Positions 811-13,397 of a DNA stretch of 13,397 bases are shown piece by piece. The translations under genes and the position numbers were made by a program. Below the pieces are notes generated by a model. It saw only the letters and a list, made by a program, of their open reading frames with translations, did not search any database and had not been told where the DNA came from. The stretch is from a virus (taxonomy: Duplodnaviria; Heunggongvirae; Uroviricota; Caudoviricetes), in IMG/VR virus record IMGVR_UViG_2671180674_000013; one strand, 5' to 3'. Every line of letters begins with the position of its first letter. Within the stretch, counting starts at the first letter, position 1.

Positions 811-1020
811 ATGGGACTGGATTGCGTGCCTATATCAACCTACTGCCGCGACGCGGGAGAAACGGTTGATGCCGTTAACAAACGGATACAAAGAGGAATC
901 TGGAAAGAAGGGATTCATGTATTAAAAGTCGACGGAGTTAAAGAACGTTGGGTCGACTTAATGGAGATTTCAAAATGGGCAAGAAAGAACAAGGATCATT
1001 ATCTCTCCCTAGAGGAGTAA
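811..1020 (+). CDS. excisionase-like small DNA-binding protein (Xis-like)
   Basis: 69-aa basic protein directly upstream of and overlapping the integrase start, the typical xis-int arrangement. GAGGTGA RBS lies 5 nt before ATG 811. Family assignment is by position and size, not by a recognised motif. Confidence 0.5.
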   Translation: MGLDCVPISTYCRDAGETVDAVNKRIQRGIWKEGIHVLKVDGVKERWVDLMEISKWARKNKDHYLSLEE

Positions 1021-2147
1021 CTATTCGCCAGCATAAAACTGGCAGCACCCTGGTTATCACTTTTACATATAAAGGGGTTCTGTGTCGGGAACCCCTCTCC
1101 AGAATGGAAGTAAATGCGCGCGGCGTGAAGTACGCCGAGCGTCTGCTGGGAGAAATAAAAAATCAGATTATCGATGGTACCTTCGAATATGCAAAATACT
1201 TCCCCAACTCCCAAAAGCTGGAGTTGTTCGGGGGAGTGAAAAAAAACAAAAATATAAAATCTTACCTGGATGAATACCTGATTATCTGCCAGAACCGTAA
1301 CCTGTCACCATCGACAATTAGAGGTTATGAAAAATGCCTGTCGGCGCTGTCAGCATTGCATAAATTTCATGTATCAGAACTGACACCTGCAGTACTAAAA
1401 AACTGGATCGCCAGCAGAAAAACAAAACTGAAAACTATCCGCAATAATCTTTCATTCCTGCGCAGCGCCATAGATGAAGCGGTGACCGATGGTTTGTTAA
1501 CAATAAATCCTGTCACGCTGGTCAGCGCCAGCCGGTATCACGTATTGGACAACACACCAGGCAGTGATGATTACGAGGTCGATCCTTTTACACCAGCGGA
1601 GACGGCAGCAATCTATGACGCCTGTCATTACCCGGAATGGCGAAATCTGTTTCGCTTTGCCTTTAATACCGGACTGCGCAGCTCAGAATTGTGCGCGTTG
1701 CGCTGGACAGATATAGACTTCATCGGCAACACTGCACATGTCCAGACTGCAAGCGTAGTCGGGGTAATCAAAAGCACCAAAACAAAAGCCGGCACTCGCA
1801 AAGTACAACTGAACAACGAAGCACTGGCAGCTCTTCAGGCACAAAAGCCCTACACGGCGCTAAAAAGCGACTTCATATTCAGCGATCCGAAAACTCGCGC
1901 TCCTTGGGCAAACGCAGATGCGATCCGCAAAAAAGCCTGGGTACCGACCCTTAAAAAGGCTGGAGTACGCTATCGCAATCCGTACCAGACACGCCACACG
2001 TTCGCCACTCGGCACATTAGCCAGGGTGTTAACCTGTTCTGGCTTGCTGGTCAGATGGGGCATAAAGGACCGGAAATGCTGTTCAGACATTACGGCTCTT
2101 ACCTTGCAGAATACGATGGAAAAACGGCGATTTCTGCAACCCCGTAA
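975..2147 (+). CDS. int: tyrosine recombinase / phage integrase (lambda-type, N-terminal arm-binding domain)
   Basis: N-terminus LSLPRGVTIRQHKTGSTLVITFTYKGVLCRE resembles the arm-binding domain of enterobacterial prophage integrases. C-terminus carries R...HTFATRH...LAGQMGH...RHYGSY, matching the tyrosine-recombinase R-H-R-Y box. Start placed at ATG 975 (GGAG at 963-966); the ORF track starts earlier at a TTG (948). Confidence 0.88.
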   Translation: MGKKEQGSLSLPRGVTIRQHKTGSTLVITFTYKGVLCREPLSRMEVNARGVKYAERLLGEIKNQIIDGTFEYAKYFPNSQKLELFGGVKKNKNIKSYLDEYLIICQNRNLSPSTIRGYEKCLSALSALHKFHVSELTPAVLKNWIASRKTKLKTIRNNLSFLRSAIDEAVTDGLLTINPVTLVSASRYHVLDNTPGSDDYEVDPFTPAETAAIYDACHYPEWRNLFRFAFNTGLRSSELCALRWTDIDFIGNTAHVQTASVVGVIKSTKTKAGTRKVQLNNEALAALQAQKPYTALKSDFIFSDPKTRAPWANADAIRKKAWVPTLKKAGVRYRNPYQTRHTFATRHISQGVNLFWLAGQMGHKGPEMLFRHYGSYLAEYDGKTAISATP

Positions 2148-2279: not shown

Positions 2280-2306
2280 CGGGTTCAACTCCCGCCAGCT
2301 CCACCA
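2280..2306 (+). other. attachment-site core: 27-nt copy of the 3' end of tmRNA gene ssrA (ends ...GCCAGCTCCACCA)
   Basis: CGGGTTCAACTCCCGCCAGCTCCACCA is identical to the 3' terminus of enterobacterial ssrA as I recall it. Sequence upstream of 2280 does not continue the ssrA match, so this is a displaced or partial 3' segment, not a full gene. Confidence 0.75.
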
Positions 2307-2341
2307 AATCATGATCCGGATACGTCCGGTGAAGTACAGAA

Positions 2342-2374
2342 AGCCCGCACGGCACAAGCCCTGCGGGCTTTTTT
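2342..2374 (+). terminator. rho-independent terminator (ssrA-type)
   Basis: Stem AGCCCGCA (2342-2349) pairs with TGCGGGCT (2362-2369), followed by a T-run 2369-2374. Confidence 0.7.
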
Positions 2375-2416
2375 GTGTCTGTCATTGTCCGAGAACATCC
2401 GGCTAAATCCAGAGAA

Positions 2417-2472
2417 AATTGGTACACGTTTAGGTACACGCTATACTGTGGTCCATTAAACGTGTACCAATT
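2417..2472 (+). promoter_or_regulatory. putative int promoter embedded in a 16-bp perfect inverted repeat (operator-like)
   Basis: AATTGGTACACGTTTA (2417-2432) and TAAACGTGTACCAATT (2457-2472) are exact reverse complements. A third GGTACACG copy is at 2433-2440. Between them lie a -35-like TTGGTA (2419-2424), a 17-bp spacer and a -10-like TATACT (2442-2447). The RBS GGAAGG (2475-2480) and ATG 2490 follow. Confidence 0.45.
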
Positions 2473-2489
2473 ATGGAAGGGATCCAGAC

Positions 2490-3680
2490 ATGGCGCGTAT
2501 CACACGCCCCCTCACTAACAATGAAATCCTTAAAGCCAAACCCCGTGAAAAAGACTTCACCCTTCATGATGGTGATGGCTTGTTCTTGCTCGTCAAAACC
2601 ACTGGTAAAAAACTCTGGCGCTTCCGTTATCAACGACCGGGAAGCAGCAGCCGCACAAATTTGAGTCTCGGCTCATATCCTGCCCTTACACTCGCAGCAG
2701 CTCGTCAGATACGCGACCAGCACTTAACCACGCTTGCGCAAGGTATGGATCCGCAGCAGCAACAAGAGCAGGCATCAGAACAACGTCAGATTGAGTTGGA
2801 TAGTATTTTCTCAACTGTGGCCGCCAACTGGTTCAAAATGAAGAGCAAAAGTGTCACTGAAGACTACGCTAAAGATATTTGGCGCTCTTTGGATAAGGAT
2901 GTGTTCCCTGCAATAGGCGCGATTCCTGTTCAGGAGATTAAGGCCAGAACGATAGTTGAAGCGTTGGAACCAATCAAAGCACGAGGTGCATTAGAAACTG
3001 TTCGTCGCTTGGTCCAGCGCATTAACGAAATAATGATTTACGCAGTTAACACAGGCCTGATTGATGCTAATCCGGCATCGGGTGTCGGAATGGCATTTGA
3101 GAAACCGAAAAAGCAAAACATGCCGACACTTCGACCAGAAGAATTGCCAAAGCTCATGCGCTCTTTGGTGATGTCGAATCTCTCAGTTTCGACCCGCTGT
3201 CTAATTGAATGGCAACTCCTGACGCTCGTGCGTCCATCTGAGGCTTCTGGCGCTCGGTGGGTAGAGATCGATCTTGATGCCAGGCTCTGGACAATTCCAG
3301 CAGAGCGGATGAAAGCAAATCGAGAGCATATCGTTCCTTTATCAACCCAGGCGTTAGAAATTTTGGAAGTAATGAAGCCTATTAGTGCTCATCGTGAACA
3401 TGTCTTCCCCAGTAGAAATGATCCCAAACAGCCAATGAATAGCCAGACGGCGAACGCTGCCTTAAAGCGGATTGGTTATGGTGGAAAGTTGGTTGCACAT
3501 GGTTTACGTTCAATTGCGAGTACAGCTATGAACGAGGCGGGATTCAATGCTGACGTCATTGAGTCTGCTCTAGCACACTCTGATAGAAATGAAGTTAGAA
3601 GAGCTTATAATCGTTCTACATATCTAGATAAAAAAATAATACTATTTAACTGGTGGGGTGCACAGGTCTATAAGAAGTAA
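2490..3680 (+). CDS. int: P4-family tyrosine integrase (CP4-57 IntA-like)
   Basis: 396 aa. N-terminal MARITRPLTNNEILKAKP...DGDGLFLLV...KLWRFRY and C-terminal HGLRSIASTAMNEAGF...ALAHSDRNEVRRAYNRSTYL match the conserved blocks of P4/CP4-57-type integrases as I remember them. It sits about 180 bp downstream of the ssrA 3' core, as intA does relative to ssrA in E. coli K-12. Confidence 0.9.
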   Translation: MARITRPLTNNEILKAKPREKDFTLHDGDGLFLLVKTTGKKLWRFRYQRPGSSSRTNLSLGSYPALTLAAARQIRDQHLTTLAQGMDPQQQQEQASEQRQIELDSIFSTVAANWFKMKSKSVTEDYAKDIWRSLDKDVFPAIGAIPVQEIKARTIVEALEPIKARGALETVRRLVQRINEIMIYAVNTGLIDANPASGVGMAFEKPKKQNMPTLRPEELPKLMRSLVMSNLSVSTRCLIEWQLLTLVRPSEASGARWVEIDLDARLWTIPAERMKANREHIVPLSTQALEILEVMKPISAHREHVFPSRNDPKQPMNSQTANAALKRIGYGGKLVAHGLRSIASTAMNEAGFNADVIESALAHSDRNEVRRAYNRSTYLDKKIILFNWWGAQVYKK

Positions 3681-3683
3681 ATA

Positions 3684-3705
3684 GAGCCTGCTGAAATGCA
3701 GGCTC
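3684..3705. terminator. bidirectional hairpin between convergent int and cargo gene
   Basis: GAGCCTGC (3684-3691) pairs with GCAGGCTC (3698-3705) around a 6-nt loop. It lies between the int stop (3680) and the minus-strand stop (3713), with T-rich flanks on both strands. Confidence 0.55.
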
Positions 3706-3712
3706 CACTTCT

Positions 3713-6349
3713 TTATTCAGTAAATATTACATCATCAATATTAAAAGACACTTTAAAATTAGGGTAGAGTTTCAATATTACCTTTTCGAAAATCTCATCA
3801 TCATCATTTAAATTTCTTGCTCTTGAATAAAGACGGTAATTATCTTTTGTTATTTGTTTAATTTCGATATGACAAGCATCATTACTATCAAAGCCTCTAA
3901 AGAAGGTAAAACTATCCAAACTTACAGCATAAATATTATTCAAGGCATTTTCGTCCTCAAAGAAGTAAGTTAACTTATAATCCTTATAAACTTCATAATT
4001 ATAGTTCTTAACTGAATTTTTATTCACAAATAATATATAATTACTCTTCTCTATATCAGCATCATTAAATTTTAAAAAACGCCCTCCTGCTTTGACACAA
4101 TTGAATAATTGCTGCTTATATATAGATATGATTCCATCTCCATATAGCCCAGCACTTGATAAATATGAAACATCATCAACCACGCCTAAAAACTCACGTT
4201 TTGATGGATAAAAAATTAGTTCACTTGTTTTATGGCATATAGGAAGCTTGGATAAATCAACATTTAATGTACTAACAAGCCATTTATTTAAATGTAAATT
4301 CACATCTATTTTAAAGCGTAATACAATGTTCTTATCCATTGTCGATTTTATAACTTTTCTCGTAACTTCTTTGCTCTTATACTCCAACATCATATCAAAT
4401 TTATCTTTAATTAAATCCACTTCCCTTTTCACTTCATTATTATCATACCCCATAGATGTTACCATTATATCTAATTCAGGAGACTCACACGCTTTAATTA
4501 GCAGGTGATAGTCGTTAGAACTAAATCCCACCACATCGACTAATTTACGCCAGTCGTACAAGTATCTCAGGTTAAACCCTCTACGTTTTACAGCCAAAAC
4601 CAATAATATAAAGACTAATGCTCTTATTGCATAGTGATATTCTGTAACAGTATAGGCCTCACCTTCCGGGAGATTTCTAATTCGTTGTTCATCTATACTT
4701 GCACGAATTCTTTCTTCATAAGAACCAAATAACATTCCATATAACTCAACTTCATCTGTATAATTAGAAAAGATAGCAAGATCGCTCCACAATTTGCTAG
4801 CATTAATTATCGCATCGATCTCCACGTCACTTTTATTGTCAGTTTGAATTGCGCTCCAACGCATCTGAAGAACAGTTAAAACAAACCGCTGAATTTTAAA
4901 TATAACAGAAATAATTTCGCTAGCATTTCTTTTTTCTAAATTCAAATACTTGACACTAAGATGCTTAGTTCCTGCATTAAAGTACTCCCCCCAAAACATT
5001 ATCGCACTGTAATCTAACTCATTGCATGCAGATTCAATCAACCCTTTAATGACTTCATAATAGTCTGCGTTATCATCGTGATAACTCAAATAACTATTCA
5101 AGGTATCTTCATGATTTTTGATAAAAGCATTAAAGTCATCTCTATTTAAAGAGAGTTTTGCTATCTGTATTATAAATTCTAACGCGGCAGTTTTCTTTCT
5201 AAGATTAACATTCAACTCAGAAAAATTATTCATTAACTCATCAATAGAATTTTTTTTCACATCCGAATTATTTAAATATTGATATGACAGTCCAAAAGCT
5301 ATATCAAAAGGATATGCTGAAACATCCCCATTAACTAAGCATGAAAAAACATTAATAGCATTTCTTATTGACTCTCTGTTATTTTCCAAAAGAGCACTAT
5401 ACAGATAGATGACAACCCCATTAATTAATTCATCATAATGATTAATCACTTTAAATTCATTATCTGTTATTAACACACCAACAATCAAAGAAGAAACTTT
5501 CTTTGATGATTTTTTATCCAAAATTTTTTTAGCCGTATAATTAACTTCTATAGTTTTGCTTCCACTACTATGCAGGTTAATATTTGGCACAATAATTTCA
5601 TATTCATCCAATAAACCTTTTATCTTCATTCCATTTAAAAAATTGTTTAGTTTATGGAATTTCTCTAAATCTATGTCAACAGTCAAAACATTATCACCCC
5701 CATATATCCCTATGCTATATGGTTGTTGCTTTTGCATTTTCATTTTGCCATAAGAATAATATCCATTTGGTAAATCTCTAACTAGATTTAAAATCTTATC
5801 ATGTAATTCAGAGTTAGCATCCTCTAACAAGGTATAACCCTTGACAAGACTTGAGCAGTGAGATTGTAAATACTCAACAGCGAAGTTCTTATTACGTGAC
5901 ATGTTAAATAATTTCAAGTATGTTTTAAAATACTTCAAAAGAAAATACATTGATAGTAATTGTGACACCACATACTGAGCAATACCACCACCAAAAACAA
6001 AAAAGAAGAATGAAATTATCAAGGTTGATATTGCATCAATACCAAACTGCACAAGGTTGATTTCATCCAGTATCTTTTTCCTAATATAACTTTCCAACGC
6101 ACGAGGTGAGGATTTATTAACAGCATCAACAGTCACACTCATAAAAGTTAATGACAACGCACTGATTGTACCGTGTATACCTAAGGAGACCCCCCAAGCA
6201 CTAAATATCCAATCAAACCCCAATTTTTTTAAATCACTAGAATTAGAAAACAACCACCACCACTCATTTTTACAAAAAAAAACAAGAATACATAAAGTAA
6301 AAAAAATAAAAAAACCAGAGATATAACAAAACAATCTTTTACCCATCAT
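3713..6349 (-). CDS. large membrane-anchored protein of unknown function; candidate anti-phage defence / abortive-infection effector
   Basis: 878-codon uninterrupted frame. Strongly AT-rich: a few sampled lines give roughly 20-32% G+C, against visibly GC-rich neighbours. The first ~145 residues contain 3-4 hydrophobic helices (LFCYISGFFIFFTLCILVFFC, FDWIFSAWGVSLGIHGTISALSLTFMSV, FGIDAISTLIISFFFFVFGGGIAQYVV). The remaining ~730 residues are hydrophilic and Asn/Lys/Tyr-rich with no canonical Walker A, HNH or PD-(D/E)xK motif seen by eye. AAGGA lies just upstream of the ATG. Confidence 0.8.
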   Translation of the reverse strand: MMGKRLFCYISGFFIFFTLCILVFFCKNEWWWLFSNSSDLKKLGFDWIFSAWGVSLGIHGTISALSLTFMSVTVDAVNKSSPRALESYIRKKILDEINLVQFGIDAISTLIISFFFFVFGGGIAQYVVSQLLSMYFLLKYFKTYLKLFNMSRNKNFAVEYLQSHCSSLVKGYTLLEDANSELHDKILNLVRDLPNGYYSYGKMKMQKQQPYSIGIYGGDNVLTVDIDLEKFHKLNNFLNGMKIKGLLDEYEIIVPNINLHSSGSKTIEVNYTAKKILDKKSSKKVSSLIVGVLITDNEFKVINHYDELINGVVIYLYSALLENNRESIRNAINVFSCLVNGDVSAYPFDIAFGLSYQYLNNSDVKKNSIDELMNNFSELNVNLRKKTAALEFIIQIAKLSLNRDDFNAFIKNHEDTLNSYLSYHDDNADYYEVIKGLIESACNELDYSAIMFWGEYFNAGTKHLSVKYLNLEKRNASEIISVIFKIQRFVLTVLQMRWSAIQTDNKSDVEIDAIINASKLWSDLAIFSNYTDEVELYGMLFGSYEERIRASIDEQRIRNLPEGEAYTVTEYHYAIRALVFILLVLAVKRRGFNLRYLYDWRKLVDVVGFSSNDYHLLIKACESPELDIMVTSMGYDNNEVKREVDLIKDKFDMMLEYKSKEVTRKVIKSTMDKNIVLRFKIDVNLHLNKWLVSTLNVDLSKLPICHKTSELIFYPSKREFLGVVDDVSYLSSAGLYGDGIISIYKQQLFNCVKAGGRFLKFNDADIEKSNYILFVNKNSVKNYNYEVYKDYKLTYFFEDENALNNIYAVSLDSFTFFRGFDSNDACHIEIKQITKDNYRLYSRARNLNDDDEIFEKVILKLYPNFKVSFNIDDVIFTE

Positions 6350-6457
6350 TCGTCCTTATGTTTTTTGGGTATTGTAAACCAAAGATAAAACCCTCTATGG
6401 TTTTGCATGCCCTGTATATTGATTTGTGTAAATTAGCTCATTACCAATTAGCGCGCA

Positions 6458-6476
6458 ATGCTCTCCCCGCCACGCC
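6458..6476 (-). other. cos-like site (P2/186/P4-type 19-nt cohesive-end sequence)
   Basis: The minus strand reads GGCGTGGCGGGGAGAGCAT. This matches the P2/186-family cohesive-end sequence as I recall it (P2 GGCGAGGCGGGGAAAGCAC, 16/19; a 186-type variant matches more closely). It lies about 170 bp downstream of the psu-like gene, where cos sits in P4. Confidence 0.5.
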
Positions 6477-6576
6477 TGCCCGCTTAAGAGGTCACTTTTA
6501 ATGCAGGTGCATGAACGGCCTCAGACCGCACCGGTACTGGTGTTGCGTGGGATAAAAAATACGGGGATTTGCATGC

Positions 6577-6610
6577 AAAGCCATGCACCTTATGGATGCA
6601 TGGCTTTTTT
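6577..6610 (+). terminator. terminator-like hairpin (canonical on + strand; may also act on the late operon)
   Basis: AAAGCCATGCA (6577-6587) pairs with TGCATGGCTTT (6597-6607) around a 9-nt loop, followed by TTTTTT to 6610 on the + strand. On the minus strand only 3 U follow the stem. Confidence 0.45.
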
Positions 6611-6648
6611 CGGGAAAAATAGCGGAATTTTCGGTTTTTTTTCGCGTG

Positions 6649-7215
6649 CTACCGTGCGGCCAGTTCTGCACGTCGGCGGGTGTAAATCAGGTTCTGTGCC
6701 GGGGTGAATTTCTGGCGATTATCATCCCGCGAAGCCGCATCAGGCCTGAATCCGATAGCCGTTAAAATATCGCTGTCCTGCACGGAATAATTAATTTTTT
6801 CACCTGCGGCCAGCCACACCGACAGGGCTTCACGCAGATAATCAACCGAGTGCTGCATGGCGCTCTGTTTTACTGCGGGAAGCTGTTCGTGATATCCCAT
6901 CAGCTCAGGTGCCAGCGTGGCGGCCAGCTCCGCGCCGTGCTGCTGCATAAAGTCATGGAGCCGGTTGCGGATACTGATGTGCTGCACCTCCTCATGTGAG
7001 CGGATATAGCGACCGGCGGCCTGATTAATTTCCCACTTTTTCACGTCGATATTGTCGCGCAAATCCTGCATTCTGAGCGGGATTTGTTCGTCACCGGCAA
7101 GGAGCTGTTCACGGTATTCCCGTTCAAGGTCTGCCAGTTCGGCTTTACGTTTCAGCCAGGTGTTTTTGTTCGTCTGACAGGCCTCAAAGGCCTGCTGTAT
7201 GGTCACAGTGGTCAC
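6649..7215 (-). CDS. psu: Psu-like protein (polarity suppression / capsid decoration), by position and size
   Basis: 188 aa, last gene of the minus-strand late operon, immediately before the cos-like site. P4 Psu is about 190 aa and occupies the same position (sid-delta-psu-cos). This is not a verified sequence match. Confidence 0.5.
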   Translation of the reverse strand: MTTVTIQQAFEACQTNKNTWLKRKAELADLEREYREQLLAGDEQIPLRMQDLRDNIDVKKWEINQAAGRYIRSHEEVQHISIRNRLHDFMQQHGAELAATLAPELMGYHEQLPAVKQSAMQHSVDYLREALSVWLAAGEKINYSVQDSDILTAIGFRPDAASRDDNRQKFTPAQNLIYTRRRAELAAR

Positions 7216-7230
7216 GTGTCTCTCTCCTGA

Positions 7231-7470
7231 TTAATGCCGGAACGGCGAGCTGTAGCAGCCCTGTACTTTACGCGGCGGCGGTGGCGTCACCGGGGCGGGG
7301 TCGGGTTTCTCCGGTGCGGCACGTATCACACCGTCAACCGACTCGATGGTGCGGAAAGTGGCCGAGCATTCGATATTGGTACACTGGTGATAACGCTGTT
7401 TGACGTTTTCCGACAGATAACGGCTGGTACGGACGTGCGCGGTATTTTTGCAGAACGGGCAGTGAAACAT
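7231..7470 (-). CDS. ogr: Ogr/Delta-family zinc-finger late transcriptional activator
   Basis: MFHCPFCKNTAHVRTSRYLSENVKQRYHQCTNIECSATFRTIESV carries the C-x2-C...C-x4-C spacing and the conserved RTSRY, RYHQC and CSATF blocks of P2 Ogr as I recall them. Single-domain, 79 aa. Confidence 0.85.
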   Translation of the reverse strand: MFHCPFCKNTAHVRTSRYLSENVKQRYHQCTNIECSATFRTIESVDGVIRAAPEKPDPAPVTPPPPRKVQGCYSSPFRH

Positions 7471-7473
7471 GAT

Positions 7474-8217
7474 TCAGCCCTCTGCCTGTTCGTGGGATTT
7501 TTCTGCCAGTTCAGCGGCAAGTTTCATCCGTCTGGCCGGGCTTCTTAACAGCGCCATATCAACCCCGGTTATGACCGGGCGATTCATGCCCGTTACGGAC
7601 AGGACCGGCTCCTGCTCCATATCAAAATGATACAGGGCTGACTGCATATTCAGGGCATCACCCAGCTCGCGGGTCACGGTCGCACGCGGCGAGGTATCTC
7701 CACTCATTTCCAGCGACCGTATACGCAACAGAAAGGCACGTAACAGTGCAGGATTGATACCGGTCAGCGCCTTCTTCCACTCGCTGTTGGCGTAGGTAGT
7801 GAACGCTTTTTCATGGGCGCTGATATAAGCCGTACCGGAGGAGCATGCGCCAAGCATGGCGTGGCTTTTGTCTTTCTCCAGCTCGGTAATCAGACCGGTG
7901 AACTCATCAGCCAGTTCGCGGCTGGCGATACGTTTGCTGTGTTCAGCTTTCAGTTCAGGAGTGAGGTTGCCGCGCAGAGTTCGAAAGCGGCTGCGCCAGT
8001 CCTGTTCGGCCTGTGCGCTTTCACTGAGGGCGGTCTGTCGTTCCTGCTCACAACGCTGAATGGAAGCCTCAATGTCGCTGAGTTTACCCATGCAGGCCGA
8101 GTGTGCGTCTTTTGCTTCGTTAAGTGCGGCCAGCGCACCGGCAATACGTTGTTCCGCGCCTTCATCCTGTTTACTGATAACGGTCTGCATGGCTTTGATA
8201 ATGAGTTCGGGTTTCAT
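7474..8217 (-). CDS. Sid-like protein (capsid size determination scaffold), by position
   Basis: First gene of the late operon, just upstream of the ogr/delta-like gene. Start placed at the ATG complementary to 8215-8217, which has GGAG 9 nt upstream and gives 247 aa (P4 Sid is about 244 aa). The ORF track extends it to 8283 without an RBS and into the putative promoter. Confidence 0.45.
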   Translation of the reverse strand: MKPELIIKAMQTVISKQDEGAEQRIAGALAALNEAKDAHSACMGKLSDIEASIQRCEQERQTALSESAQAEQDWRSRFRTLRGNLTPELKAEHSKRIASRELADEFTGLITELEKDKSHAMLGACSSGTAYISAHEKAFTTYANSEWKKALTGINPALLRAFLLRIRSLEMSGDTSPRATVTRELGDALNMQSALYHFDMEQEPVLSVTGMNRPVITGVDMALLRSPARRMKLAAELAEKSHEQAEG

Positions 8218-8289
8218 GTTCAGGTTCTCCGTATGTTCAACCTGAAATGATTCTGACGCCTCCTGCACAACAACACGATTCATTGCCGT

Positions 8290-8307
8290 TGTCAGAGTGC
8301 TGGCACA
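8290..8307. promoter_or_regulatory. TGT-N12-ACA dyad: candidate Ogr/Delta binding site of the late (Psid-like) promoter
   Basis: TGTCAGAGTGCTGGCACA at 8290-8307. The dyad centre is about 80 nt upstream of the proposed sid-like start, which would place it near -55 relative to a plausible transcription start, as in P2/P4 late promoters. Confidence 0.45.
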
Positions 8308-8385
8308 AACAGACCTTAAAATCAGGCTGGCCAGAGAAAGGTCGCAGGAAAACCTTACTCACCGTTTGTTTTTTTACTTATAACT

Positions 8386-8488
8386 ATTCACCACTGTTCA
8401 CCTTAAATAAAAAGATAAGTAATACAGTAAGTTAAATGGTGAACAGTTGAAGGTCTGACTGTTCACCGTCTGTTCACCACTGTTCACC
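8386..8488. repeat. iteron cluster of TGTTCACC octamers (P4 crr-like alpha-binding region)
   Basis: Perfect TGTTCACC at 8395-8402, 8460-8467, 8471-8478 and 8481-8488. Inverted copy GGTGAACA at 8438-8445. Degenerate ATTCACC at 8386-8392. Confidence 0.7.
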
Positions 8489-8570
8489 CTTCAGTTTTGC
8501 TCTGGCTATATCATTTAGACTTTATTACGATTGAAAACGAAGAATATATAACTAAAAGAGATATTAATTG

Positions 8571-8627
8571 CTGCATTGTAATGCAGTGATTTGCATATGT
8601 TTGCCAGCGTTTGCCTTTGTTTGCCAG
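8571..8627. promoter_or_regulatory. palindrome plus helically phased GTTTGCC repeats in the promoter region of the alpA-like operon
   Basis: Perfect 16-nt palindrome CTGCATTGTAATGCAG at 8571-8586. GTTTGCC at 8599, 8609 and 8619 (10-bp phasing), with TGTTTGCCAG repeated at 8598-8607 and 8618-8627. Confidence 0.4.
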
Positions 8628-8754
8628 AGCGAAAAGTCAATGTTTGTTTCCCCGAAAATCTCACATGACCTGAGGGAAAATATAAACATAATAAGGAGCT
8701 ACCCGAAGCCGGACGGACACGACCGGCACTGTATGGACTTTGTGAGGTAGCCCG

Positions 8755-9021
8755 ATGCACACCGCTTTTTCTTCCCCGTCTTCTGCCCCTGCCGCGCCGC
8801 TGATGCCGGTTTCTGATACCGTTCACGAGCGCTTTATCCGTCTGCCCGAAGTGATGCATCTGTGCGGCCTGTCCCGCTCGACCATTTACGACCTCATCAG
8901 CCGGGAAGCCTTCCCGAAACAAATCTCCCTCGGCGGAAAAAACGTGGCGTGGGCGCAGTCTGAAATCACTGCATGGATGGCGGATCGCATTGCCGAACGT
9001 AACCGGGGCTATGACGCATGA
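8755..9021 (+). CDS. alpA: AlpA-family phage transcriptional regulator (MerR-like HTH)
   Basis: The segment [47 protein letters not shown] matches the AlpA helix-turn-helix pattern (RLP.V....G.SR.TIY......FP.....G...V.W...EI..W). GAGG lies 8 nt before ATG 8755. Confidence 0.7.
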
Positions 9022-9148
9022 TGATGGCCGCTCAGCAAAAAGCCCCTTTTTCTGGCTTGCTTCTTTTCGCCGTTTCCAGGTATAGTTTTCCCGCTGTCGC
9101 AAAATCGGCAGCCGGGATTGGCGTCCCGTTTACAACATTGGCGACACC

Positions 9149-9171
9149 GGACGCGCCTTGCGTCTTTTTTT
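9149..9171 (+). terminator. short-stem intrinsic terminator in the leader downstream of the alpA-like gene
   Basis: GACGC (9150-9154) pairs with GCGTC (9160-9164) around a 5-nt loop, followed by seven T (9165-9171). The stem is only 5 bp, so it is weak or conditional. Confidence 0.35.
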
Positions 9172-9374
9172 GTGTCTATGCCTCAGCGCATCCATTTTTG
9201 ATCCAGAGATTTATCTGTCTATGGATCCTTCGTGTAATGGTGGCTCAGGCGGGGGCTTCTCACGAAGCGCCGGTTTCCAATGTTGCCGGTTACGCCAACC
9301 CCGTCTGGGCTACCACCAGTGAAATTGGCGTTTCCAGTGGTAGCAGTCACATGCAAACATTGGAGGTTGCCACT

Positions 9375-9569
9375 ATGGCTACGACCCTCACCCCGTCACA
9401 CCCGCAGTTTGTCTTTGTGTTTGCCGCCGTTCGTCGCGCAGACCGTAAACCCCGTATTTGCATGCTGCGCACCGTTGCCGGTGACGAGCACGCCGCACGC
9501 CTTTCCCTCGTTCGCGATTACATCCTCTCGTTCGCTGGCCGTCTGCCGGTTGCGGAGGTGCGCGCATGA
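9375..9569 (+). CDS. hypothetical small protein (64 aa)
   Basis: Strong GGAGG at 9362-9366, 8-nt spacer, ATG 9375. The longer 9018-start form in the ORF track has non-protein-like composition upstream of this ATG. Confidence 0.5.
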
Positions 9570-9793
9570 GACACACCACCATTACTGCCCGTGACCTCGA
9601 ATGTCTGGAGCATATGCGCAATGTCGGCCAGCTCGTCAGCGACCTGATGCAGGTGCAGGACTGCGCCACCGTTCGTCGTGACCCTGCGCAGCAGTTACAG
9701 CTCACCTCCGTGATTTACCTCATGACCGCCCAGCTCGACGGCGTGGTCGAACGCTGCAATCAGCAGTGGCTGACCGGGGAGGGTAACGTATGA
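9566..9793 (+). CDS. hypothetical protein (75 aa), translationally coupled
   Basis: ATGA start/stop overlap with the preceding ORF at 9566-9569; acidic, helical-looking sequence. Confidence 0.5.
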
Positions 9794-10110
9794 AAAAGCC
9801 ATTACCACCCGTATTACGCGCCGCGCTGTATCGTCGCGCCGTGGCCTGTGCATGGCTGACCCTGTGCGAACGCCAGCACCGCTACCCGCACCTCACCCTC
9901 GACGCGCTGGAAAGCGCCATTGCCGCCGAGCTGGAGGGCTTCTACCTGCGCCAGCACGGCGAGGAAAAAGGCCGTCAGATTGCCTGTGCCCTGCTCGAAG
10001 ATTTAATGGAAGCCGGACCACTGAAAGCCGCCCCGTCGCTGTCCTTTCTCGGGCTGGCCGTGATGGATGAACTCTGCGCCCGTCATATCACCGCACCGGC
10101 ACTGCACTGA
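9790..10110 (+). CDS. hypothetical protein (106 aa), translationally coupled
   Basis: ATGA overlap at 9790-9793. Directly precedes the primase gene, in the position of the P4 epsilon/accessory genes. Confidence 0.5.
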
Positions 10111-10121
10111 GGGAAAACACC

Positions 10122-12455
10122 ATGAAAATGAACGTAACGGACACCGTAAAACAGGCGTGCGGCCACTGGCCGCGCATTCTCCCTGCGCTGGGTGTGAAGG
10201 TGATTAAAAACCGCCATCAGTCCTGCCCGGTGTGCGGCGGCTCCGACCGCTTTCGCTTTGACGATAAAGAGGGGCGCGGGACGTGGTTCTGTAACCAGTG
10301 CGGCGCGGGAGACGGCCTGAAACTGGTAGAGAAAGTGTTCGGCATGACCCCGTCAGAGGCGGCCGGGAAGGTGAACGCCGTGACCGGCAACCTGCCGCCG
10401 GTTTCCCCGGAAGTGACTGCGGCCGCAGAGGCCGAAACTGTGGCCGACCGCAAAGCGGCGGCCGCGCTGGCCGTCAGGATCATGGAGAAAACCCGACCGG
10501 CCACCGGCAATGCCTACCTCACCCGCAAGGGTTTCCCCGACCGGGAATGTCTGACGCTCACCGTCATGCATAAAACCGGCGGCGTGACGTTCCGCGCCGG
10601 TGATGTGGTTGTCCCGCTGTATGAGGATACCGGCACACTGGTTAACCTTCAGCTTATCAATGCTGACGGTCTCAAGCGCACCCTGAAAGGCGGTCAGGTC
10701 AAAGGTGCATGCCATACCATTGAAGGGCAAAAACAGGCGGGAAAACGCCTGTGGATTGCGGAGGGTTATGCGACCGCGCTCACCGTGCATCACCTGACCG
10801 GGGAAACCGTCATGGTGGCGCTGTCCTCCGTGAACCTCCTTTCTCTGGCGAGCCTTACCCGTCAGAAGTCCCCGGCCTGTCAGATTGTGCTGGCCGCTGA
10901 CCGTGACCTGAACGGCGACGGCCAGAGCAAAGCCGCTGCGGCCGCAGATGCCTGTGAGGGCATTGTTGCCCTGCCGCCGGTGTTCGGTGACTGGAATGAT
11001 GCGTTTATGCAGAAAGGTGAAGAGGCCACGCGGAAAGCCATTTATGACGCCATCCGGCCACCGGCGCAAAGTCCGTTTGATACCATGAGCGAAGCGGAAT
11101 TTACCGCCATGAGCGCCAGCGACAAGGCCTTGCGGGTGCATGAGCATTACGGCGAAGCGCTGGCGGTGGATGCGAACGGCCAGCTCCTGTCCCGCTATGA
11201 AAACGGCATCTGGAAAAATATCCCTGCCGCCACTTTCTCACGGAATGTGGCTGACTTATTCCAGCGTCTGCGCGCCCCGTTCTCGTCCGGGAAAATTGCC
11301 TCGGTAGTGGAGACCCTGAAACTGATTATTCCGCAGCAGGATACACCGGCACGTCGTCTGATTGGCTTTCGCAACGGGGTACTCGATACCCAAAGCGGCG
11401 TATTCAGCCCGCACCATAAATCGCACTGGCTGCGCACGCTGTGCGACGTGGATTTTACCCCGCCGGTGGACGGGGAAACGCTGGAGACTCACGCGCCAAA
11501 CTTCTGGCGCTGGCTCGACCGTGCAGCCGGTAAAAACCCACAAAAACGCGACGTGATTCTGGCCGCGCTTTTTATGGTGCTGGCGAACCGTTACGACTGG
11601 CAGCTCTTTCTCGAAGTGACCGGTCCCGGCGGGAGTGGCAAAAGTATTCTGGCCGAAATCGCGACCCTGCTCGCCGGAGAGGATAACGCCACGTCGGCCG
11701 ACATCGACACGCTGGAAGACCCGCGCAAGCGAGCATCCCTGATTGGCTTCTCGCTAATCCGTCTGCCTGACCAGGAAAAATGGAGCGGTGACGGCGCAGG
11801 ACTCAAGGCAATCACCGGCGGCGATGCGGTCTCGGTTGACCCGAAATACCAGAACCCCTATTCCACGCATATTCCGGCTGTAATTCTGGCCGTGAACAAC
11901 AACCCGATGCGCTTCACCGACCGCAGCGGCGGCGTGTCGCGTCGCCGGGTGATTATTCACTTCCCGGAGCAGATTGCCCCGGAGGAACGCGACCCGCAGC
12001 TCAGGGATAAAATTGCGCGCGAGCTGGCCGTCATTGTGCGCCAGCTTATGCAGAAATTCAGCGACCCGATGACCGCGCGCACACTGCTCCAGTCGCAGCA
12101 GAACTCCGACGAGGCACTCAGCATCAAGCGCGATGCTGACCCGACGTTTGATTTTTGCGGCTATCTGGAAATGCTGCCGCAGACCAACGGGATGTTTATG
12201 GGGAATGCCAGCATCATCCCGCGTAATTATCGTAAATATCTCTATCACGCGTATCTGGCCTATATGGAGGCTAACGGCTACAGGAACGTGCTCAGCCTGA
12301 AAATGTTCGGGCTGGGGCTGCCCATGATGCTGAAAGAGTACGGCCTGAATTATGAGAAGCGGCACACCAAGCAGGGGATACAAACCAATCTGTCGCTGAA
12401 AGAGGAAAGCTACGGAGACTGGTTGCCGAAGTGCGATGACCCCACAGCAACATAA
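10122..12455 (+). CDS. P4 alpha-type bifunctional primase/helicase
   Basis: 777 aa, the same length as P4 alpha. N-terminal zinc-ribbon C-P-V-C-G-G...C-N-Q-C-G, a Toprim-like LWIAEGYATALTVH...AADRD segment, and a Walker A GPGGSGKS (from VTGPGGSGKSIL) in the C-terminal helicase half. GC-rich, with iterons following. Confidence 0.9.
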   Translation: MKMNVTDTVKQACGHWPRILPALGVKVIKNRHQSCPVCGGSDRFRFDDKEGRGTWFCNQCGAGDGLKLVEKVFGMTPSEAAGKVNAVTGNLPPVSPEVTAAAEAETVADRKAAAALAVRIMEKTRPATGNAYLTRKGFPDRECLTLTVMHKTGGVTFRAGDVVVPLYEDTGTLVNLQLINADGLKRTLKGGQVKGACHTIEGQKQAGKRLWIAEGYATALTVHHLTGETVMVALSSVNLLSLASLTRQKSPACQIVLAADRDLNGDGQSKAAAAADACEGIVALPPVFGDWNDAFMQKGEEATRKAIYDAIRPPAQSPFDTMSEAEFTAMSASDKALRVHEHYGEALAVDANGQLLSRYENGIWKNIPAATFSRNVADLFQRLRAPFSSGKIASVVETLKLIIPQQDTPARRLIGFRNGVLDTQSGVFSPHHKSHWLRTLCDVDFTPPVDGETLETHAPNFWRWLDRAAGKNPQKRDVILAALFMVLANRYDWQLFLEVTGPGGSGKSILAEIATLLAGEDNATSADIDTLEDPRKRASLIGFSLIRLPDQEKWSGDGAGLKAITGGDAVSVDPKYQNPYSTHIPAVILAVNNNPMRFTDRSGGVSRRRVIIHFPEQIAPEERDPQLRDKIARELAVIVRQLMQKFSDPMTARTLLQSQQNSDEALSIKRDADPTFDFCGYLEMLPQTNGMFMGNASIIPRNYRKYLYHAYLAYMEANGYRNVLSLKMFGLGLPMMLKEYGLNYEKRHTKQGIQTNLSLKEESYGDWLPKCDDPTAT

Positions 12456-12463
12456 CCTCACTC

Positions 12464-12490
12464 AGACCGGCATCAGCCGGTCTTTTCCTT
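12464..12490 (+). terminator. rho-independent terminator after the primase gene
   Basis: AGACCGG (12464-12470) pairs with CCGGTCT (12477-12483) around a 6-nt loop, followed by TTTTCCTTTC. Confidence 0.6.
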
Positions 12491-12507
12491 TCTGACCATT
12501 GCCACAG

Positions 12508-12792
12508 GGTGAACAATCCACTGTTCACCCTTCACCGTATATTCACCCTGTATCACCATGAAATTATTGATAAAAAACCAGAGGTGAACAGTGTGAATAG
12601 TAAAACCTGAAAAAACTTTTTATCCCTCCACCACATCGCCTGACCGGGCGCATCCAGAGCGAGAAAAAAACACAAAGGTGAAGAGTCGACTGTTCACTCT
12701 TCACCAACTCATCACCATTTATCTTTATGATTTAAAATAGAAAATAAGCATGGTGAACAGTGTGAACAGTTAAATGCAAAAAAACTTTTTTT
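12508..12792. repeat. iteron cluster of TGTTCACC/GGTGAACA octamers with A/T-tract elements (P4 ori-like)
   Basis: GGTGAACA at 12508-12515, 12583-12590 and 12752-12759. TGTTCACC at 12522-12529. Near-copies at 12531-12537, 12541-12548, 12677-12684, 12691-12698, 12700-12705 and 12761-12769. Inverted repeat GGTGAAGAGT (12677-12686) / ACTCTTCACC (12696-12705). A5-6CT5-7 tracts at 12609-12623 and 12776-12792. Confidence 0.7.
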
Positions 12793-12896: not shown

Positions 12897-13397
12897 ATGG
12901 GGACTACTTTGCTTCAAGAAAACCATGAAAAAATTTTAAACATACTAAATGAAGCTAAAGATGTGGCGCTAAGGTATTACAAATTAACCAATAAGCCTCT
13001 CGGAATCACTGGAGAAATAGCTGAACATGAAGCTGCAACTCTTCTCGGGTTGTCACTATGTTCAGCACGTCAGTCCGGATACGATGCGACTGAGATTTTG
13101 GACGGGAAAGAATATAGAGTTCAAATCAAAGGTCGATATATGCCTGATCCTAAAAAAGTCTCTGCGAGAATTGGTGCTATTGATATATCTAAGCCATTTG
13201 ATTCTGTTCTTTTAGTTTTGCTTGATGAAAATTATGATGCTTTTGCCATGTATGAAGCATCACGAGATGTAGTAGTCGCAGCTCTTCAAGCTCCGGGGTC
13301 AAAGTCTAGAAATGAGCGAAATCAACTAGGCATAGCAAAATTCAAGTCCATTAGCCGTCTCCGCTGGAGCAAGGTTGCTGAACCTGAGATCCTTTAA
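12897..13397 (+). CDS. hypothetical protein (166 aa), AT-rich accessory gene at the alpha-proximal end of the element
   Basis: Complete frame from ATG 12897 to TAA 13395-13397, with an AGGGA-type RBS upstream. Composition is markedly more AT-rich than the adjacent primase gene. No family recognised. The spaced acidic/basic residues (GEIAEHE...GYDATE...RVQIKGR) are weakly reminiscent of a PD-(D/E)xK-like core, which is speculative. Confidence 0.6.
   Translation: MGTTLLQENHEKILNILNEAKDVALRYYKLTNKPLGITGEIAEHEAATLLGLSLCSARQSGYDATEILDGKEYRVQIKGRYMPDPKKVSARIGAIDISKPFDSVLLVLLDENYDAFAMYEASRDVVVAALQAPGSKSRNERNQLGIAKFKSISRLRWSKVAEPEIL

Follow-up and report, generated by a model that had tools for sequence, protein, structure and literature searches.

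A probable P4-type antisense RNA immunity region of the C4 family in a P4-like satellite prophage

The viral record IMGVR_UViG_2671180674_000013 (Caudoviricetes), a stretch of 13,397 nucleotides (nt) referred to here as the window, contains about 350 nt between the stop codon of an alpA-like gene and a strong ribosome-binding site in which an earlier note, made from the sequence alone, had seen no convincing open reading frame (ORF). The note had described a short terminator hairpin and three mutually complementary words of 8-9 nt and had proposed an RNA-based switch analogous to that of the CI RNA of phage P4. What, then, does this region do? Our analysis indicates that positions 9018-9569 are very probably the immunity region of a P4-like satellite prophage, operated by a P4-type antisense RNA switch of the C4 family. 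The proposal of a switch with pairings of the seqA/seqB/seqC type is supported by Rfam matches, by the alignment to P4, by covariation and by the satellite context. The system is already known and can be detected by routine Rfam annotation, and the specificity words of this element differ from those of P4. The main value of the result lies in correct annotation: RefSeq lists no RNA gene, and three Rfam families together with the P4 literature explain the region fully. Minor additions are a survey of specificity classes and the description of a counterpart of the P4 eta frame that is open but unconstrained.

Two sets of complementary words in and around a C4-like RNA

The three words are present as described: CAACATTGG at 9133-9141, its complement CCAATGTTG at 9277-9285, and AACATTGG(A) at 9356-9364, which can be extended to AACATTGGA and overlaps the GGAGG at 9362-9366, ahead of an ATG at 9375. 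The sequence AACATTGG or its complement occurs at 9134, at 9277 (minus strand) and at 9356, and no further copies were found in the window. This 8-mer count of three in 13.4 kb, with a span of 231 nt, compares with an expected count of 0.56, and 5 of 200 shuffled sequences reached three or more. Taken alone, the statistic is only modestly significant, in agreement with the earlier caution that a single complementary pair of 9-mers is not strongly significant on its own, and its weakness is what could favor chance repeats in a GC-rich intergenic region. That explanation is refuted by the covariation presented below and is also opposed by the Rfam and homology evidence, and we give it virtually no credence.

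A repeat search revealed a second complementary triple, formed by TTGGCGT at 9118-9124 and 9325-9331 and by ACGCCAA at 9292-9298; the extended word ATTGGCGT occupies 9117-9124 and 9324-9331, and its complement 9292-9299. The region therefore holds two sets of three mutually complementary words instead of one. All of them lie on the plus strand. The central copies are b' (UCCAAUGUUG, 9276-9285), which contains the middle word of the earlier note and is seqB-like, and a' (ACGCCAA, 9292-9298), both situated inside a C4-like RNA. Upstream of the RNA gene lie target a1 (UUGGCGU, 9118-9124), complementary to a', and target b1 (CAACAUUGG, 9133-9141), which is complementary to b' and corresponds to the first word. 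Downstream of it lie target a2 (UUGGCGU, 9325-9331), again complementary to a', and the seqC-like target b2 (AACAUUGGA, 9356-9364), the third word, which together with the Shine-Dalgarno sequence GGAGG (9362-9366) occupies 9356-9366. Both target sets show exact complementarity in the window.

Searched against Rfam at gathering thresholds, the window gave three hits and no more, all on the plus strand and all inside the region. One of them identifies a C4/CI-family antisense RNA gene at 9233-9320 (C4, RF01695), which matches the model over its full length (positions 1-87 of 87) with 78.5 bits against a gathering score of 45; P4 itself scores 74.9 bits on the same model. Folding, a check that the earlier note had suggested, gave -48 kcal/mol for the C4-like RNA (z = -5.9), the minimum-energy fold being identical to the centroid fold. 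A long closing stem surrounds two hairpins, and the two recognition words are both unpaired, b' in the 10-nt loop of the second hairpin and a' in an 8-nt single-stranded joint. The RNA also contains a tRNA-like stem followed by ACCA. A search of the window for tRNA or tmRNA genes found none. CI and C4 RNAs are listed among the substrates of RNase P (PMC5499578). Judged from this reported processing and from the Rfam model, the mature RNA probably extends from about 9238 to about 9318 (~80 nt) and ends with the closing stem and then ACCA.

The 3' arm of the closing stem, GCUACCAC (9309-9316), can also pair with GUGGUAGC (9337-9344), so that an alternative plus-strand hairpin (9309-9344), whose loop contains a2, competes with the closing stem. 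In the alignment of homologous leaders described below, this hairpin shows compensatory changes (RNAalifold columns 262-269 with 290-297), which at one pair involve 20 sequences. It can arise only in read-through RNA that is still unprocessed.

The second hit defines a leader RNA module at 9093-9171, which is isrK-like according to Rfam and corresponds to the seqA region of P4. The isrK model (RF01394) matches 9093-9170 on the plus strand with 75 bits against a gathering score of 50. The module consists of hairpin 1 (9093-9112), hairpin 2 (9113-9128), whose loop and 3' arm contain a1, and a terminator, and the isrK model places the first word between hairpin 2 and the terminator. The third family, c4-a1b1 (RF03163, "a1, b1 targets of C4 antisense RNA"), matches 9080-9132 with 48.5 bits, barely over its threshold of 46.7. 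The short terminator hairpin noted earlier was recovered by a terminator scan and by folding, with a stem at 9149-9165 followed by a T-run to 9171. This intrinsic terminator corresponds to t1 of P4, and one of its pairs switches from G-C to C-G in 10 homologues (RNAalifold).

Upstream of the leader module, a constitutive promoter of the PLE type is predicted at 9057-9086 on the plus strand, with the -35 element TTGCTT (9057-9062), an 18-nt spacer and the -10 element TATAGT (9081-9086), which would place the transcript start at about 9093. These elements were read from the sequence and are conserved in a pairwise alignment with P4. In the window as in P4, TATAGT lies 7 nt before the start of the isrK model, and in the P4 record X02534 this TATAGT bears the annotation "-10 consensus". 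A simple promoter scan of the window did not list the promoter at 9057-9086 among its sites.

Between the terminator and the C4-like RNA, folding predicts a further plus-strand hairpin at 9200-9227, which shows compensatory changes (RNAalifold columns 115-125 with 169-180) and may contribute to the processing context. This spacer varies more than any other segment of the leader, and its length differences are mostly multiples of three. An antiterminator pairing of GCGUCC (9122-9127) with the 5' arm of the terminator, spotted by eye, was dropped since the complementarity is missing in the P4 alignment.

Concerted change of the words in homologous leaders

With the Kil-like protein encoded downstream of the RNA gene as query, we collected 21 loci in a set of genomes with one representative per species, and a further 80 in IMG/VR. 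Represented among the genomes are Kluyvera, Enterobacter, Raoultella, Kosakonia, Tatumella, Klebsiella, Buttiauxella, Edwardsiella, Serratia, Pantoea, Erwinia and Pectobacterium. Both C4 and isrK were found above gathering score directly upstream of the Kil homologue in all 20 loci scanned, which belong to 20 other Enterobacterales genomes. An alignment of 75 distinct homologous leaders was used for the analysis of covariation.

For the upstream pairings (a1:a' and b1:b'), 94.8% of the cells were paired, compared to 36-48% when the partner was slid by 1-3 columns. Changes on both sides were seen in 13 of the 16 pairs, and the covariation score of 0.751 was reached in none of 500 shuffles, whose mean was 0.226. 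Similar values were obtained for the downstream pairings (b':b2 and a':a2), with 97.7% of the cells paired against 35-47% after sliding, 12 of 16 pairs changed on both sides, and a score of 0.738 against 0.220 for the shuffled alignments (0 of 500 as high). The seven pairs of a1:a' and the seven of a':a2 were intact in 100% of the 75 sequences, six of the seven having changed on both sides in either helix, and as many as three pair types were seen at a position; in b1:b', changes on both sides were found in 7 of 9 pairs. RNAalifold, run without any hint, included the long-range a1:a' and b1:b' pairs in its consensus. The sequences are related, so that the shuffle control overstates the significance, but the slid control retains this relatedness and is equally clear. 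The covariation check proposed in the earlier note thus yielded strong concerted change at six sites in 75 homologues, and the complementary words are therefore not due to chance.

In-register pair counts, which were used in place of duplex and cofold energies, showed that all 75 elements match their own targets at 15 of 15 positions, while non-cognate combinations average 10.25. Five a' words and 13 b' words occur among the 75 leaders, in 23 combinations; that of the window (CCAATGTT / ACGCCAA) is also present in one Raoultella and one Enterobacter locus. The survey thereby combines a very clean three-site covariation with many predicted heteroimmune classes among P4-like satellites. The recognition words of the window are CCAAUGUU / ACGCCAA, those of P4 CCUGUGAA / UUCUCAC, and on the P4 targets the RNA of the window would pair at only 2 of 7 and 4 of 8 positions. 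On the strength of these differing words and this poor pairing, the element is predicted to be heteroimmune to P4.

The kil-like gene, the overlapping long frame and the proposed switch

The GGAGG precedes a kil-like gene at 9375-9569 on the plus strand, which encodes an Icd-like cell-division inhibitor of 64 amino acids (aa) and is the first translated gene of an operon that ends in the alpha primase gene. Its product matches NCBIfam NF033153 (phage_ICD_like) with E = 7.7e-22, the gene aligns with the kil region of P4, and both the GGAG and the kil ATG are invariant in the 75 aligned leaders. The gene is nested in a long eta-like frame of 183 aa (9018-9569, plus strand), which starts with MMM, overlaps the alpA stop codon and crosses the promoter, both RNA modules and kil. 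The P4 counterpart has 199 codons, an identical MMM start overlapping the stop codon of orf88, and a nested ATG after GGAGG. The names and functions of this long frame (eta) and of the nested gene (kil) in P4 are said to come from work by Forti and colleagues in 1999 (J Bacteriol 181:5225).

In 82 of 84 distinct loci, no stop codon interrupts the long frame over at least 100 codons before the kil ATG, as opposed to 0 and 2 loci for the other two frames. An in-frame ATG is present 115-149 codons upstream of the kil ATG in 77 loci, mostly in a ATGATGATG context beside the alpA stop, and differences in leader length are mostly multiples of three. In kil, the codon-position entropies of 0.21, 0.20 and 0.63 for positions 1, 2 and 3 display the third-position excess of a coding gene, which indicates that the last 64 codons encode a real, Icd-like protein. 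A codon-position test on 31 same-length homologues showed no third-position excess anywhere in the first 119 codons, upstream of kil, where the corresponding values were 0.42/0.31/0.27 in the isrK module, 0.70/0.83/0.79 in the spacer, 0.35/0.42/0.40 in the C4 module and 0.73/0.57/0.39 in the downstream part. The first 119 codons are kept open, though not as protein. This explains the "odd composition" that the earlier note had ascribed to the 183-aa frame.

In two Pectobacterium loci (L023, 1466-1748, and L024, 2224-2503), a 1-nt deletion immediately before the kil ATG shifts the long frame out of the kil register; the frame of about 123 codons is still open there, in another phase.

In the identical sequence of Escherichia coli E2 (NZ_CP195953, 10019-10570), RefSeq has no ncRNA and annotates the whole 183-aa frame as "host cell division inhibitor Icd-like protein", although the match to the Icd-like model is restricted to its last 64 codons. 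In addition, Pfam PF10554 (Phage_ASH) matches aa 22-131 of the frame (window 9081-9410) with 8.9e-31. This annotation, this match and the wide conservation of the open frame would suit the view that a protein, Ash or Eta, underlies the conservation of the region and that the repeated words are by-products of coding. Such a protein, however, would leave a third-position excess upstream of kil, which is not seen, and the constraint on it does not predict that the variable positions change as base-paired partners at three sites. Moreover, Phage_ASH is named after the old "put. ash gene" ORF of P4, positioned over the CI RNA gene as placed by Rfam, and the family may largely consist of translated RNA genes. 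We consider a protein-based explanation extremely unlikely. The claim that the interval has no convincing ORF holds for the first 119 codons, which lack a coding signature; it fails for the nested kil, which is coding, and it had passed over a frame that is annotated, matches a Pfam family and is widely open. The eta counterpart is conserved only as an open frame, and its overlap does not refute the RNA switch, since eta coexists with the RNA genes in P4.

According to the mechanism that we propose, the PLE-like promoter would drive a leader transcript carrying a1 and b1, followed by the intrinsic terminator, the C4/CI-family RNA, and a2 and b2. By homology with P4 and P1/P7, the RNA would be excised from read-through transcripts, its 5' end being formed by RNase P, and the processed RNA would act on new transcripts of its own element and also, in trans, on an incoming element that has its specificity. 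By binding a1/b1 it would, again by homology, raise termination at the leader terminator and in this way lead to autoregulation of the RNA. Briani and colleagues reportedly found in 2000 that CI pairing enhances termination at t1 of P4. Pairing with a2/b2 would mask the ribosome-binding site of kil, and the untranslated RNA would then be terminated before the replication genes, which would keep the primase operon off and the element lysogenic and immune. In P4 (timm, t4) and in the c4-icd-ant operon of P1, the subject of work by Biere and colleagues in 1992, a block of translation is followed by termination before the downstream genes. Transcripts from a late promoter before alpA would be translated throughout in the eta frame and would escape through the transit of ribosomes, not through the sequence of Eta. 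In P4, transcripts from the late promoter upstream are protected against termination by translation of the eta region. An open frame free of constraint fits this role, in which translation itself rather than its product would shield late transcripts.

Several points weigh against this mechanism. For the present element, transcription, processing, trans action and termination are argued wholly from homology, and the details on t1, t4, timm and eta/kil are those of P4. Duplex and cofold energies, calculated for the RNAs of the window and of P4 with cognate and non-cognate targets, did not discriminate between the two kinds of target, as the GC-rich stem flanks dominate. No Rho entry site is demonstrated at the start of kil, which is only moderately C-rich and G-poor (C/G ratio 1.8-1.9, with a 95th percentile of 2.33 in the window). 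Finally, the covariation would be expected equally from pairing in cis, inside a single read-through transcript, and from pairing in trans. It would thus accommodate a purely cis-acting attenuator, in which the words form alternative structures of a single transcript and there is no trans-acting small RNA, and the minimum-energy fold of the full leader does stay within one molecule. Yet the element in the middle is of the C4 family, in which the members that have been studied (C4 of P1/P7 and CI of P4) are processed, trans-acting RNAs. Its extremely stable fold, with both words unpaired, is the design of a kissing-loop antisense RNA, and the concerted change at three sites with many specificity classes fits selection for immunity specificity between competitors. 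We regard the attenuator as very improbable and retain the P4-type antisense switch.

The isrK-like leader could add or substitute another layer, which we consider rather unlikely, namely that the leader RNA itself (9093-9171, with a1 and b1) acts in trans, either as a decoy titrating the C4-like RNA or as an activator that would open the kil ribosome-binding site of read-through transcripts, after the manner of Gifsy-1 IsrK on orf45-anrP. Its score of 75 bits on the isrK model would agree with this, as would the fact that a short leader RNA holds both target sites and could bind the C4-like RNA. In P4, however, the documented role of seqA is that of a target for CI-dependent termination (PMC4825925, PMC3632133), and nothing here obviously corresponds to the Gifsy-1 helix of IsrK with the 3' end of orf45, as kil starts downstream of the RNA without overlapping it.

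It is possible, though we advance this only tentatively, that P4-like satellites run a two-RNA toggle in place of a simple repressor and, as a separate matter, that a combinatorial immunity code exists among competing satellites. In the toggle, a leader RNA of about 78 nt, ended by the terminator and with both target words, could play in trans the part that IsrK has in Gifsy-1, as a decoy for the C4-like RNA or as an activator opposing it, and processing would be coupled to repression by the conserved hairpin at 9309-9344, in which a2 is displayed in unprocessed RNA only. In the code, the a and b words would behave as independently exchangeable modules, each combination needing concerted change at three sites. 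A catalogue of such combinatorial words was not found in the one satellite genomics paper that was checked.

Satellite context and known systems

The P4-like satellite prophage spans about 2280-12792. It carries int, psu, delta-like, sid-like, alpA and alpha genes in conserved order (Pfam, NCBIfam and RefSeq names), which is the core gene set of the SatelliteFinder type described for P4-like satellites (PMC8628076). The integrase is encoded at 2490-3680 and AlpA at 8755-9021, while the immunity region is followed by an ORF of 75 aa, a DUF5375 gene and the gene of a 777-aa alpha primase-helicase. Positions 2280-11001 share 99.9% identity with E. coli strain E2, where the element adjoins ssrA. 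The 75-aa ORF (9566-9793, plus strand) occupies the position of epsilon in P4; it shows no similarity to P4 epsilon and no match to a Pfam or NCBIfam family. Its assignment as epsilon was rejected for lack of similarity, and no epsilon homologue was found.

The motif TGTTCACC occurs in 9 copies, against 0.28 expected, as iterons in two clusters (8395-8488 and 12508-12759). Five of them are located between sid and alpA, at the place of the annotated "ori type 1" repeats in the P4 record, and four after the primase gene. P4 carries a second repeat cluster (crr) after its primase gene. Three GTTTGCC repeats were seen by eye at 8599-8628.

Before alpA, the promoter scan gave only a weak sigma-70-like site at 8665-8692. 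The dyad TGT-N12-ACA, which we take to be the pattern of the delta/Ogr-activated late promoters of P2 and P4, was considered as a PLL-like late promoter before alpA and rejected: the sole dyad of the region (8290-8307) is on the sid side, about 75-90 nt upstream of the RefSeq start of the minus-strand sid-like capsid gene.

Between int and psu lies an ORF of 878 aa (3713-6349, minus strand), a candidate for an uncharacterised defence gene. The int-psu interval is an anti-phage defence hotspot of P4-like satellites (PMC9122126). The ORF has no Pfam or NCBIfam match and only a weak PADLOC match to AbiEi (E = 0.0011, aa 474-607); other E. coli strains carry Drt3, an AAA-ATPase with DUF4435, or other genes at this site. 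The flank directly to the left of the satellite (1-2280) encodes another tyrosine integrase, of 399 aa, at 948-2147 (plus strand; Arm-DNA-bind_2 and Phage_integrase). Together with the lack of a tmRNA gene in the window, when the satellite of E2 abuts ssrA, it hints at tandem islands or at another insertion context. Shortly beyond the satellite's right end, an ORF at 12897-13397 (plus strand) is cut by the end of the window; all of its 166 aa match the PADLOC entry "Type II methyl-directed restriction enzyme", with E = 9.8e-101.

Among phage records, P4 is the best BLAST match, with 71.1% identity over 8700-9560 of the window, and the P4 sequence gives the isrK and C4 hits of Rfam in the same order. 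The order and spacing of the elements are those of the P4 immunity region (PLE, seqA, t1, cI with seqB, seqC, kil/eta and the alpha operon). The alignment brings into correspondence the stop codons of alpA and orf88, the ATGATGATG start, the -35 (TTGCYT) and -10 (TATAGT) elements, both leader hairpins, the terminator, the RNA, the GGAGG and the next gene. The long frame with its MMM start and a nested gene of about 64-65 aa is likewise shared, and the flanking genes are alike. The two regions differ in both recognition words, in all three copies of each, in the spacer between terminator and RNA, which is 45 nt shorter in the window, and in the gene after kil, which is unrelated to P4 epsilon. 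IsrK and C4 are structural homologues of the seqA and CI RNAs of P4, where CI pairs with seqA and seqC and causes termination (PMC3632133, PMC4825925).

The immI operon of P1 and P7, with c4 (a'/b'), the targets a1 b1 and a2 b2, icd and ant, shares the RNA family RF01695 and the target family RF03163, which belong to one clan, as well as the logic of two recognition words; the gene after the RNA is Icd-like here and icd in P1. The second target set of P1 overlaps the ribosome-binding site of icd, the gene after the RNA, just as b2 overlaps that of kil in the window. The translational block of icd is reported to lead to premature termination before ant, in studies attributed to Citron and Schuster (1990) and to Biere and colleagues (1992). 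In contrast to P1/P7, where the cargo is an antirepressor, the operon controlled here would be that of satellite replication (primase), and the present region has in addition an overlapping eta-type frame and an isrK-type terminator between the first targets and the RNA.

The IsrK - orf45 (STnc1160) - anrP locus of prophage Gifsy-1 in Salmonella shares the leader family RF01394. There, a leaky intrinsic terminator permits read-through, and the region reached in this way gives rise to a stable RNA downstream; in Gifsy-1 only, IsrK binds Hfq and activates in trans the translation of its own read-through mRNA orf45-anrP (PMC4825925). The short RNA of Gifsy-1 is thus a trans activator, whereas repression of the P4/P1 type by the C4-like RNA is the main activity expected here, and the downstream genes differ.

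Finally, C4-like modules of lambdoid and other temperate phages (the orf37 region of SfV, Stx phages, Salmonella phage 118970_sal3 and Ayreon) show 72-81% identity to 9234-9387 of the window. They lack the P4 satellite backbone and are annotated over or before genes for antirepressors, Rha or an "immunity region". As the stretch of 72-81% identity comprises the RNA, a2/b2 and the ribosome-binding site, the module is common to satellites and full temperate phages.

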